In this document: positions 1,912-7,368 of the stretch, piece after piece
Layout: every line of letters starts with the position of its first letter
Position numbering within the stretch: the stretch's first letter is position 1
NCBI GenBank assembly: GCA_038143065.1
Contig: JAYQLI010000035.1
Location: 352,001 to 416,000, forward strand
Direction of reading: 5' to 3'
From: Rhodospirillales bacterium
Lineage (GTDB): Bacteria; Pseudomonadota; Alphaproteobacteria; Bin95
Length of the DNA stretch: 64,000 nt
Notes under the pieces: model-generated
What the model was told of the DNA's origin: nothing
The model's input: only the letters and a program-made list of their open reading frames with translations
The model's database searches: none
Translations under genes and position numbers: made by a program

Positions 1912-3842
1912 ATGGAAGATTCCGACTCTAAAGTTCAAATGGAAGGAAAGTTAGCTCCAAACCGAGCTGGCGCGGAAGACATTCTCTCCCCTAAATCTCT
2001 TGGAATGATGGAACTTGGAATAAGCATTATACAAGAAGTGGTGAAGACGTTGCCGTCTTCTCCAGGTGTTTACCAAATGTTAAATGAGCAAGGAGAAGCT
2101 CTGTATGTTGGCAAAGCCCGTTCATTAAAAAACGTGTGCCAGCCTATACCCGATTTGCACAACTTCCAAACCGACTGCGCAGAATGGTTTCCGAAACCAG
2201 GTTAATGCAGATCGTAACAACCCACACAGAAGTTGAGGCTCTATTGCTTGAGATCAATTTGATCAAACAATTAATGCCTCGATATAATGTTCTGCTGCGA
2301 GATGATAAAAGCTTTCCGCATATTCTTATCGCAAGGGATCATGAATTCCCGCAACTTGTAAAACATCGAGGAGCTCAGAAAAGGCCTGGAAATTACTTTG
2401 GCCCTTTTGCCTCAGCAGGATCGGTTAATCGCACACTAACAGCAATGGAGAAAGCATTTCTCCTGCGCTCTTGCTCTGACTCAATATTTAAATCGCGCAC
2501 CCGACCATGTTTAATGTTTCAAATAAAACGTTGTTCGGCCCCGTGTGTTGGAAAAATATCAACAGAAGAGTATGCCAGCCTCGTAGAAGAAGCATTCAAC
2601 TTTTTGACGGGAAATAGTCAGAACATACATGATACAATGGCTGAGCGAATGAATAACGCGGCTGAAAGCTTAGATTTTGAAACTGCAGCTGCATATCGCG
2701 ACAGAATTCGTGCTCTTGCACATATTAGCAGTCACCAGGACATAAATGTTGAGGGCGTTGGCGATGCAGATGTTTTTGCGATAGCTGAAAAAGGGGGACA
2801 AACCTGTATTCAGGTCTTCTTCTATCGTGGTGGACAAAATTTTGGAGGTCGTGCCTTTTTTCCAAGTCAGGTGCGGGACCTGGGCCCAGCTGACGCAATG
2901 CTTGCTTTTCTAGGGCAATTTTATAGTGATCGCTCTCCTCCATCTCAGGTGTTTGCATCTATAATGCCCAGTGAGGTGGATTTGCTGGAACAGGCCCTGA
3001 GCCTAAAAGCAAAGAGGCGAGTTCTTATAAAGGCACCAAGTCGCGGCAGAAAGCGACGAGTAATTGAGCATGCAAGTTCTAATGCAGAAGACGCACTAGG
3101 CAGGCGTCTTTCAGAAAGTGCTACCCACCGCCGGCTTCTTGATGGATTAGCTGAAGCGTTTGAGTTGGATGGAACGCCAGACCGGATCGAGATTTACGAT
3201 AACTCACATTTAAGCGGGACTAATCCGGTTGGAGGTATGGTCGTAGCAGGGCCGCTTGGTTTTGAAAAAAATCAGTACCGTAAATTTAACATCCGTAGTG
3301 CCGCAGGTAATGATGACTTTGACATGATGCGAGAGGTTATGTTCAGGCGGTTTAAACGGGCTCAACGCGCAGAGGAGTCGGGTGAAGAGGTTATTTGGCC
3401 AGATCTACTTCTGATTGATGGTGGTAAGGGTCAGCTGTCTGCAGTGAAGAAAACACTCTCTGAAATTGGCATTGATACTATCCCGGTAATTGGAATAGCT
3501 AAGGGTCTAGAGCGTGACGCTGGTCGTGAACGTTTTTTTGTGGAGGGTAGAGACTCTTTTCTTTTGCCTCCGAATTCTCCCGTTCTTCATTACCTGCAAA
3601 GACTTCGAGATGAGGCCCATCGATATGTGATAGGCGCTCAGCGTAAGCGACGAGCAAAGGCAATATCGGAAAATCCATTAGACGATGTACCTGGTGTAGG
3701 AGTCTCACGTAAAAAGGCTTTGTTACTGCGCTTCGGCTCAGCAAAAGCAGTATCAAGAGCTGGTTTTGACGATCTCCAGTCAACGCCAGGAATTTCCGTA
3801 GCTCTTGCTCAGCGCATTTATGAGCACTTCAACGGAGGGTAA
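1912..3842 (+). CDS. uvrC: Excinuclease ABC subunit C (frameshift at A-run ~2127-2132)
   Basis: GIY-YIG domain PGVYQM..LYVGKA, RIEIYDNSH, LIDGGKGQL, RLRDEAHR, C-terminal HhH; start uncertain (1912/1939/2005). Confidence 0.95.
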
Positions 3843-3872: not shown

Positions 3873-4614
3873 TCAGTACGTTGCACGACCGCCGGAGATA
3901 TCGAACACACCGCCGGTAGTAAAGCTCATCTCGGCACTTGCTAGCCAACAGGCCATGCTTGCAACTTCTTCCACTGTAACAAAACGATTGCGAGGAATCT
4001 TAGAGAGCATGTAATCGATGTGCTCTTGGCTAATTTGGTCAAAAATACGCGTTTTGCGGCAGCAGGAGTAATGCAATTCACTGCTATGTTATGGGCAGCA
4101 AGTTCCTTACCCAAAGATTTTGTAAAGGCAATTACGCCGGCTTTAGCTGCGGAATAGGGCGATGCATTTGATTGCCTTCTTTACCGGCTATGGATGCGAT
4201 GCTTACAATCCGCCCATAATTCCGATCAATCATCTCTTGTACTACTGCCCTCGAGCAATAAAAGACGGCATTTAGGTCAAGTTCAATTACCTTCCTCCAC
4301 TCAGAGATAGGATAGTCCTTAACTGCTAGAGAGGGGCCCGCGATACCTGCATTATTGATTAAAATATCAACAGGGCCATGCGCATCCCTAGACTTTGCCA
4401 TAGCGATTTCAATAGCGCTAGGATCAGTTACATCACATTGAACACCTAATGTGCCAACTCGTGTGTTTGCAGCAGTCTCAACTTCGGCTGCATCTATATC
4501 CCACATAGAAACCTTTGCGCCCGATGCCAACATTCTGTCAGCAATGGCCAAGCCAAAGCCCTGAGCTCCACCCGTTATAACTGCGTGGCGATCCCGAAGA
4601 TCAATTTCGTTCAT
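3873..4614 (-). CDS. SDR oxidoreductase, 2-keto-3-deoxy-L-rhamnonate dehydrogenase-like (frameshifted)
   Basis: TGGAQGFG, NNAGIAGP, SIAGKEGN; C-terminal fragment ends TTGGVFDISGGRATY. Confidence 0.75.
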
Positions 4615-5354: not shown

Positions 5355-5556
5355 TCACAAGCTCCATTCCTAAGATAGGAAAAATTCATCCAACATTTAT
5401 CTACATGCCGATTTTACGATACCTAAACGCGTTGATTTCATAAATTAATTTTTTAAGAGCCAAATCTGTTTTGATCGATCTAGTTAGACTTTTGACTGAT
5501 CGGAAGAATAATAATTTTTTGAATTTGCAAATTATCGAATTGATAATACTCGTTTG

Positions 5557-5598
5557 AAAAAAAAGCCTCCCCCTTTGTTTGGAGCAAATGAGGGAGGC
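5557..5598 (-). terminator. Rho-independent terminator of the peroxiredoxin gene
   Basis: Minus strand GCCTCCCTCATTTG..CAAAGGGGGAGGC followed by T8, about 20 nt after the stop. Confidence 0.75.
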
Positions 5599-5617
5599 CT
5601 ATGGTCCGTAAGAGCTT

Positions 5618-6051
5618 TTATAAAGCTGATAAAACTTCGTCAGGATGCTCTTCGGGCACTACAGGGTCGAAAACCTTTTCGACGATGCCGTCTGGACTGA
5701 TCAGAACTGAGATACGTCTTGGCCTTTCCGATGAAGCATCAGCCGCACCATAAGATATCGACATATTCTTTTCAGTATCTGCTAGAAGATCGTATGGAAA
5801 ATCAAACTTCTCTTTGAATGCCTTTTGATCTTCTGGAGTATCAAAACTAACTCCAAGAATCACGACATTTTTTGATTGAAATTCTTGGATTCGATCACGG
5901 AACCCATTTCCTTCAATTGTTCACCCTCGTGTATCTGCTTTAGGGTAAAACCAGATCAGAACTCTTTTCCTGCCAAGCTCTCAAGCGTTATTTGCGCTCG
6001 ATCCTGGTTAAGAAGACTGAAACTGGGAGCTGTTTTTCCGGCCTCTGCCAT
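5618..6051 (-). CDS. bcp: Peroxiredoxin BCP/PrxQ, probable selenoprotein (UGA at the peroxidatic site); one 1-nt frameshift at 5965-5968
   Basis: AAGGAG RBS and ATG at 6051: MAEAGKTAPSFSLLNQD..LAGK(fs)RVLIWFYPKADTRG[TGA 5923-5921]TIEGNGFRDRIQEF..ILGVSFD..; continues in frame into ORF 5618..5863. Confidence 0.85.
5875..5917 (-). promoter_or_regulatory. Candidate bacterial SECIS hairpin
   Basis: Begins 3 nt after the UGA: lower stem AUUGAAG/UUUCAAU, purine-rich internal loop, upper stem UGGGUUC/GAAUCCA, loop CGUGAUC. Confidence 0.6.
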
Positions 6052-6295
6052 TATTAACTCCTTTGTTCATCGATAGAAATATAGATAAACAAATTGGAAT
6101 TTTAATCAAACGTGTAATGTTGAAAACACACACCTATTGCTGCATGTTTTAAAAACAGGATCTTTTTCGTATCAAGAGATGCAGGCGGGGATCTTGGATT
6201 AATAAAAAAGCTTATTTGTAATAAATAAATACGATTTATTAGATATTTATACTATTTTTTTAACAAATTTATTTATTTATCGGAGTGGATTGAAG

Positions 6296-7317
6296 CTAGG
6301 ATAACCATGCTTCTGAGGCTTCTAAAATAGCATCGTCTTTTAGAGAACGGTCTACGTGTTTCTGAAAATGTTGCGCAGTTGATGTACCAAGTTGGCTAGC
6401 TGACCAAGCACCTTTCATGGAAGATTCTTTTTTCCAGCGCATAAAAAAACCAATTGTTCTTAGCCAAACAGCTTGACGAAATGGCTTTATGCGTTGTGCG
6501 TTAGTATCTGCCATTTTCTCTGGAACGCTTTCGAGCCAAGCTTGGGCGAATGTGTCTCTTTCTTGCGAACTGGGAGACATAGCGGCATCGGGATCCCATC
6601 CGGCAGCAACTTTAATTACCGTATGAGCTAGATCTAACGCGGGGCAGCCATAAACAGGTTTTTCAAGATCGACAAAGCACGCATCTCCAGACGGGCGAAT
6701 AATAAAATTACCAGGATGGGTATCGCTAACACATAGTGCTTCTGGCGTAAGCTCTGAGTGATCTTGAACCATACTGAGAACATCCTTTAGCCTAGAAATT
6801 ATTTCGTCCTTTGCTTTGGGGCCAATTTTTGTTTGAGGCAGGAACAACTTTAACGTTGTCTCAGCCTGCTGGACGATTGAAGCAAGGGGGTTTTGATGCG
6901 TTTCAATTGGAGCGCGGGCTTTTGACAGCGGTAAGGGAAGAGAATGGATCGCGGCTAAGCTGCGGGCTAAACAGGGAAGTTCGGAGGGGTTTTAGGAATT
7001 CTTCCTGCAATTCGTTCAACGACCAGTGCGCCTCGGGGCAATTCTTGGCTAATTGGAATGATAGTGAGTAGGTCTGGCGTTGCACCGGAAGCTTTAGCGC
7101 GGTCGAAACCAGCCTTTTGTAACATTAGCTGTGCTTCAGGGGTTAGGTTCATTTGGCTCAAACGCGGTACTCTAAGTAACCATTTGGATGAACCGAGCTG
7201 AAAATGTGAGTGTGAAACGCCGTTTCCCTGAACTAACGAGAGCTCATGAAGATCTAAATCATAATCTTTTAATGCTGTTTCTACAGCTTGTTTAAAATGA
7301 AGGGGTGTGTCAGTCAT
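6296..7317 (-). CDS. APH/choline-kinase family phosphotransferase (frameshifted)
   Basis: ORFs 6967..7317 and 6296..6847 joined through an intervening frame (LAAIHSLP); Brenner-like SDTHPGNF and VDLE motifs. Confidence 0.8.
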
Positions 7318-7368
7318 GCCTAAAAAGATTAGTATTTTTATTAAAAATTCAGAAGAGGGTTGTGGGGG

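Follow-up and report, generated by a model that had tools for sequence, protein, structure and literature searches.

A probable BCP-type selenocysteine peroxiredoxin gene behind a frame break and an in-frame TGA in a Rhodospirillales genome assembly

Background

A stretch of 64,000 nucleotides from the Rhodospirillales genome GCA_038143065.1 (contig JAYQLI010000035.1, positions 352,001 to 416,000), referred to below as the window and used for all position numbers unless another sequence is named, carries on its minus strand a region resembling a small peroxiredoxin gene that is interrupted twice, once by a change of reading frame and once by an in-frame TGA. The locus raises the question whether a genuine selenocysteine (Sec) peroxiredoxin of the BCP/PrxQ type is encoded there, with the TGA read as Sec and the frame broken only in the assembly, or whether one or both of the interruptions belong to the organism.

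Results and discussion

Two reading frames of one peroxiredoxin gene

The coding region of the Sec-peroxiredoxin, 5618..6051 (minus strand), is split into two frames in the assembly. The ATG at 6051-6049, placed 6 nt downstream of the Shine-Dalgarno sequence AAGGAG (6058..6063, minus strand), opens a frame of 31 codons (P0001) which ends at the TGA 5958-5956. The second frame (P0002, minus strand) is open from 5980 to the TAA stop codon at 5618-5620 and reads ..RVLIWFYPKADTRG-TGA-TIEGNGFRD.. followed by 100 more codons. When the missing base is allowed for, the gene comprises 144 codons and the in-frame TGA (5921..5923, minus strand) is codon 44. An alternative start on the 3' side of the frame break was rejected, as there is no ATG, GTG or TTG in frame between the stop at 5983-5981 and the Sec codon.

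The P0002 translation matched the Pfam AhpC-TSA domain (PF00578) with an E value of 2e-23 and 83.1 bits against a cut-off of 26, and the N-terminal piece P0001 matched positions 2-26 of the same profile weakly (E 0.04). As the two pieces cover successive parts of the profile, they can be regarded as consecutive parts of one peroxiredoxin domain. The TAA is followed by an intrinsic-terminator-like hairpin with eight U behind it (5555..5600, minus strand), which folds at -21.4 kcal/mol (z -3.87); none of 200 shuffled sequences folded as well. A simple pattern scan for terminators reported none in this place, the loop of the hairpin exceeding the scan's loop limit of 8. The ribosome-binding site (AAGGAG), the in-frame run to 5618 (TAA 5620-5618) and the terminator (hairpin and eight U) that the original prediction had assigned to this BCP/PrxQ frame were all recovered, as was its remark that the open reading frames recorded only the C-terminal 81 aa: the start-to-stop ORF list contains nothing of this gene apart from 5618-5863.

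Conservation of the TGA codon at the peroxidatic position

P0002 was searched against 41 genomes, namely the window's own and 40 relatives. Sixteen close orthologues (58-83 % identity, from three genera and two families) were found, and every one of them has exactly one in-frame TGA, in the same column, in the context ..YPKADT[RP]G-TGA-T[IVF]EG[NK]GFRDR.. with the protein conserved downstream. All sixteen have an intact frame that begins with an ATG 43-45 codons before the TGA and is preceded by a GGAG-type ribosome-binding site. Their length is 144-150 aa, and start, TGA column and stop are shared with the window gene, whose active site reads P-K-A-D-T-R-G-TGA.

A species-level genome collection yielded 68 loci when scanned, 51 with TGA and 17 with TGC or TGT (Cys) in the same column; the genome sets of the two surveys overlap (L043, for example, is the G005 contig). 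Most of the TGA forms come from MAGs that bear the label Alphaproteobacteria or Rhodospirillaceae, with further ones from Gammaproteobacteria, Gemmatimonadaceae, Planctomycetota and one Vulcanimicrobiota. The Cys forms belong to Nitrospinaceae and Planctomycetota. Homologues with Cys at the Sec column were also present in the protein database (P0038, P0076, P0117). The alternation of Cys and TGA among homologues, which had been proposed as a check, was borne out in this way. The best relatives among solved structures are BCPs, and in the alignment with 3drn, 5enu and 2ywn the TGA column falls on their catalytic Cys (or the Ser replacing it in a mutant); the Thr three residues before the TGA and the active-site Arg are aligned with theirs as well. 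On the strength of the orthologues and the solved BCPs the TGA was read as Sec at the peroxidatic position of a PxxxTxxU site, and the earlier claim that it falls exactly on the catalytic Cys was upheld.

In many full-length protein database entries (P0004-P0020, P0050) the Sec column is occupied by W, the gene caller having translated the TGA as Trp; this selenoprotein is thus systematically mis-annotated in metagenome protein sets. Other entries, P0103 and P0116, are C-terminal fragments of 81-82 aa.

Two observations on related genes were made alongside. A MAG labelled Gammaproteobacteria (L073, positions 2630 and 3110) contains two tandem Sec-type peroxiredoxin genes, both of which have the TGA as well as the same hairpin sequence (see below). 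The window's genome also carries a Cys-type bcp paralogue (G000:C35:463168-463533), 41 % identical and free of internal stops, which is present in most relatives too.

Sec decoding machinery in the genome

The genes needed to decode UGA as Sec were looked for in the same genome, and all four were detected above the curated cut-offs: selA (496 bits), selB (435 bits), selD (280 bits) and the tRNA-Sec gene selC (71.5 bits, anticodon TCA). selB adjoins selA and forms an intact ORF of 630 aa. The statement that this alphaproteobacterium decodes Sec is supported by these genes, and the situation named beforehand as speaking against it, a genome devoid of selA, selB and selC, is not the one encountered.

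In this assembly selA (minus strand) is interrupted by an in-frame TAA (L002 3477-3479; G000:C35 about 594805-594807), some 34 codons short of where the gene should end, and SelA-like sequence (..KKKFWLDCRCL..) continues past it. No internal stop is present in selA of G005, G011 and G030; selA was found in three of the four relatives tested, and the fourth genome is 87 % complete. selD is an ORF of 508 aa on the minus strand (L010 1393-2919; G000:C35 about 517680-519206). Its N-terminal ~190 residues resemble part of a pyridine-nucleotide-disulfide oxidoreductase (..FAAGDCAEF..), with a CGGC motif behind them; the N-terminal domain seems to be truncated and is possibly frame-broken as well. 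The layout of the ORF recalls the CxxC-containing Ndh-SelD fusions to which PMC2398784 refers.

It could be argued that the TGA is a plain stop, so that the locus yields only short peptides or bcp has decayed throughout the clade. Gene callers do end at the TGA, and the 81-82-aa entries mentioned above are such C-terminal calls. This explanation is nevertheless highly improbable given that 16 of 16 orthologues and 51 of 68 loci retain the TGA in a single column, with the protein strongly conserved downstream of it, that Cys alternates at exactly this column, and that the genome possesses the Sec machinery.

A SECIS-like hairpin downstream of the TGA

A bacterial SECIS is a stem-loop with a G-containing apical loop situated shortly after the UGA. 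A hairpin answering this description was found at 5875..5917 (minus strand), with an upper stem formed by 5905-5900 (GGGUUC) and 5892-5887 (GAAUCC), a 7-nt loop CGUGAUC (5899-5893) and a lower stem pairing 5917-5911 with 5881-5875. All 17 copies of the gene share the TGA followed by ACN-NTN-GAA-GGN-AAN-GGGTTCCGTGAYMGAATCC. The RNAalifold consensus consists of the 6-bp upper stem GGGUUC/GAAUCC with the loop CGUGAYM, starting 15 nt after the UGA, and a short lower stem, and the window's own copy folds into the consensus hairpin at -12.2 kcal/mol.

In an alignment of 49 distinct sequences 99 % of the cells had the six pairs of the upper stem formed, as opposed to at most 67 % when one side was slid. 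No compensatory double change was found in the hairpin among these 49 sequences, and their covariation score was reached by 311 of 500 shuffles; the alignment did not include the divergent TGA loci L109 and L110, whose hairpins lie in another register and were folded separately. Folds of single sequences were not significantly better than those of shuffled ones (z -0.4 to -1.95). Since covariation was absent and the folds did not exceed the shuffles, the argument for the structure rests on the invariance of the sequence and of its synonymous sites. The latter are frozen within the hairpin, where Arg is encoded by CGT in 16 of 16 copies, Phe by TTC in 16 of 16 and Gly by GGG in 15 of 16, in comparison to 3-4 codons used in invariant Gly columns of the remaining gene. 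The two distant TGA homologues have hairpins at the same distance from the UGA, an 8-bp stem with the loop CGUGAC in L109 and a 7-bp stem with the loop AGUUUC in L110. An Rfam scan of 5500-6200 with E values up to 10 gave seven chance-level matches, with no SECIS family among them.

Origin of the frame break

The frame break lies at 5965..5970 (minus strand), where the window, compared with every orthologue, lacks a single base after the codons of ..A-G-K and before those of R-V-L..; the orthologues read AGK[RQYS]VLIW across this position. In the window's assembly the gene consequently has no uninterrupted frame. Logan contigs of four runs (X1, X5, X6 and X15) were compared with the segment 5500-6200. 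The base at the break was in this way judged from contigs of other runs, as distinct from raw reads or the source population.

In the contigs of X5, X6 and X15 an extra C follows plus-strand position 5968 (a G on the coding strand, GG becoming GGG at 5969-5970), so that the coding strand reads GGG-AAAA instead of GG-AAAA and the frame is restored. One X5 contig spans the whole of 5500-6200 at a depth of 19, the X6 contig covers 5863-6015, and a 443-nt contig of X15 covers 5605-6046. X15 is an RNA library; its contig has no strand information and may stem from DNA carry-over, hence it was used as a copy with an intact frame and not as proof of transcription. The three runs come from three studies, and their contigs are mostly 95-99 % alike to the window. 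None of them differs from the window in the TGA at 5921-5923, so that the TGC or TGT which would have spoken against a Sec codon did not appear. Of the runs closest to the window (X1-X4, which share 0.85 of words), X1, the one most like it, gave no contig matching 5500-6200, possibly a false negative.

The original prediction had placed the missing base in the run of A at 5965-5968. According to the contigs of the three runs it is instead a G of GG(G). The correction leaves the predicted protein intact, as repair with either base gives the same residues (A-G-K-R-V-L).

In the terminator hairpin, too, other runs depart from the window: within 5555-5575 X5 lacks two bases at 5557 and has a T inserted at 5573, and X6 has a C inserted at 5568. 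Either differences between strains or additional assembly errors could account for these small indels.

The neighbourhood of the gene was compared with that of G005, the closest relative. Around the window 14 genes of G005 have counterparts, and seven of these show one or two frame changes in the window's assembly. The genes concerned, which are single ORFs in G005, lie at 1434-1933, 1912-3839, 3876-4614 and 6302-7344 of the window and, outside it, at G000:C35:345732-346855, 347717-348974 and 351346-352183. The SDR-type gene at 3876-4614 is spread over three frames, and a gene of 349 aa is split at about 6973-6991. At a second locus, the gene beside selA changes frame and selA itself has the TAA described above. 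Altogether 10 of the 17 genes compared with G005 are damaged, the peroxiredoxin gene included (nine by frame changes and one by an in-frame TAA), which corresponds to about one lesion per 1.5 kb. The source genome is 4.6 Mb long and was scored 97.6 % complete. Such a density of lesions cannot be reconciled with a working genome of this completeness, and the frame break was therefore read as an assembly indel. Some of the junctions of the other frame breaks contain runs of 4-6 identical bases, which is consistent with indel errors but does not prove them.

Next to these damaged genes a further difference from G005 was noted. Five ORFs of G005 (G005:C118 9876-14570; 435, 251, 264, 295 and 329 aa) have no syntenic counterpart in the window's genome at about position 1933, and the flanking G005 gene of 390 aa matches it only up to residue 170. 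Judged from the two sequences, a deletion or rearrangement with respect to G005 is indicated.

A different account would accept the family as real selenoproteins and regard the copy of this strain as a true pseudogene that owes its inactivation to the real loss of one base. The assembly as given does have the frame break, the runs closest to the window (X1-X4) give no view of the base in question, and the damage to nearby genes could in principle be genome decay. Damage to 10 of 17 genes, selA among them, is, however, incompatible with a viable free-living 4.6-Mb genome and typical of uncorrected indel errors. Three independent runs, at 95-99 % likeness to the window, also have the frame intact, and the gene bears no further sign of decay: it has no other stops, and its identity to G005 over P0002 residues 2-120 is 83 %. 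A pseudogene is accordingly considered unlikely.

The break falls within the slippery-looking GGAAAAG, and a programmed ribosomal frameshift at this G/A-rich run was considered for that reason. It was rejected, as the 16 orthologues and the three near-identical contigs from the environment all do without a frameshift. The search for a frameshift element was negative too, the only Rfam match of this kind being on the other strand with an E value of 5.9. The probability of programmed frameshifting at this site is practically negligible.

The one-base break is thus most likely a base-calling or assembly indel and no property of the organism, and 5618..6051 (minus strand) is very probably a genuine gene for a Sec peroxiredoxin of the BCP/PrxQ type. 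An assembly so rich in indels matters for every other finding made in the Rhodospirillales genome GCA_038143065.1, and the seven frame-changed neighbours suggest that the problem is genome-wide.

Cysteine content and proposed catalysis

P0001 and P0002, joined as the orthologues read, contain no Cys, in agreement with what had been predicted for the reconstructed protein. The residue at +5 from Sec is Asn, so that the CxxxxC arrangement of atypical 2-Cys enzymes is lacking. The same positions were inspected in 67 Sec-type sequences, a set in which some genomes are counted twice, and in 17 Cys-type sequences drawn from few phyla (chiefly Nitrospinota and Planctomycetota). Cys is found at +5 in 3 of the 67 Sec-type as against 6 of the 17 Cys-type sequences, and at the LLCD position (reference residue 91) in all 17 Cys-type as against 5 of the 67 Sec-type sequences. 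The Sec-type sequences have no conserved Cys column: their commonest Cys, that of GCSFD, occurs in 30 of 67, and 24 of the 67 are entirely free of Cys.

The +5 Cys is kept in three Sec-type loci, L093, L103 and L109 (match regions 2501-2935), as U-x-x-x-G-C or U-T-x-Q-G-C. Two of these are labelled Planctomycetota and one is an unclassified 'uncultured bacterium'. By their sequences they would be a version combining Sec with a resolving Cys, found beside the Cys-Cys relatives L094, L099 and L101.

The following course of catalysis can be proposed. SelB and tRNA-Sec would insert Sec at UGA44 under the guidance of the hairpin, which starts 15 nt past the UGA within the coding sequence. In the PxxxTxxU site Sec would substitute for the peroxidatic Cys, alongside two conserved residues, Thr41 and the Arg within ..RRISVLI... 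The selenolate would then attack the peroxide and give a selenenic acid intermediate. Because no second Cys is present, the oxidised Sec would have to be reduced directly by an external thiol donor. BCP/PrxQ enzymes are thioredoxin-dependent, as is reflected in NCBIfam names, and thioredoxin is for this reason the most plausible donor.

Whether the gain of Sec at the catalytic site was accompanied in this clade by the loss of every second Cys is a matter on which we lean slightly towards doubt, although the Cys counts make it a serious candidate. The contrast between Sec-type and Cys-type sequences may simply be a difference between clades. If the loss did accompany the gain, the Sec-type proteins would qualify as true '1-Sec' peroxiredoxins, with thioredoxin or a small thiol reducing the selenenic acid directly, and this would suggest that Sec makes the resolving residue dispensable. 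A Sec clade with no conserved second Cys in any case provides a testable hypothesis on the recycling of Sec peroxiredoxins. As a feature read from aligned sequences, the lack of a conserved second Cys across the clade is a small refinement.

Comparison with known peroxiredoxins

By profile scores the window protein is neither PrxU nor an E. coli Bcp equivalog. The full-length orthologue P0003 reached 115.4 bits with the model of the latter (NF006960), below its cut-off of 140, and 41.8 bits with the PrxU model NF040737, whose cut-off is 270. NF006960 was nevertheless the best-scoring NCBIfam model for P0003. With the Cys-type BCP/PrxQ proteins (NF006960; 3drn, 5enu, 5iiz) it shares the best-scoring family and fold, the length and the active-site Pro, Thr and Arg. 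It differs from them in having Sec at the peroxidatic site and Asn, Lys or Gln in place of Cys at +5.

PrxU, reportedly described by Sohling et al. in 2001 as a selenocysteine peroxiredoxin of Eubacterium acidaminophilum, is likewise a bacterial peroxiredoxin with Sec at the catalytic position, but belongs to a different subfamily, the NF040737 model having 233 positions in comparison to 144 residues here.

The closest published counterpart is the marine Sec-Prx family. 'Peroxiredoxin (Prx)' (COG1225, TxxU) was listed by Zhang, Fomenko and Gladyshev in 2005 as a previously known selenoprotein family, and with 43 genes Sec-Prx ranked second in abundance among the selenoprotein families in the Sargasso Sea (PMC1088965). 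In the GOS data Zhang and Gladyshev reported in 2008 253 Sec-Prx (pfam00578, TxxU) versus 7,348 Cys homologues (PMC2398784), and a 2026 review, which cites the 2001 PrxU paper, places Prx with PxxxTxxU among the established selenoproteins (PMC13188914). The original prediction of a Sec peroxiredoxin holds as regards the gene, which is taken as genuine. The family itself is not new, TxxU Sec-Prx having been in print since 2001/2005.

The window gene is an ordinary, unannotated member of this published marine BCP-type family, and existing knowledge on selenoproteins is unchanged by it. It provides a clean, genome-anchored case of a selenoprotein missed by standard gene calling, which leaves an 81-aa fragment or renders the TGA as Trp. 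Like the marine Sec-Prx (TxxU, COG1225/PF00578), it encodes a small single-domain peroxiredoxin with Sec at the peroxidatic position, has widespread Cys homologues and carries a bacterial SECIS directly after the UGA; in the accessible parts of the published descriptions nothing essential sets it apart. What the present analysis adds to the marine family is a genome-anchored member, the distribution of the clade in alphaproteobacterial MAGs and the observation that a second Cys is not conserved.
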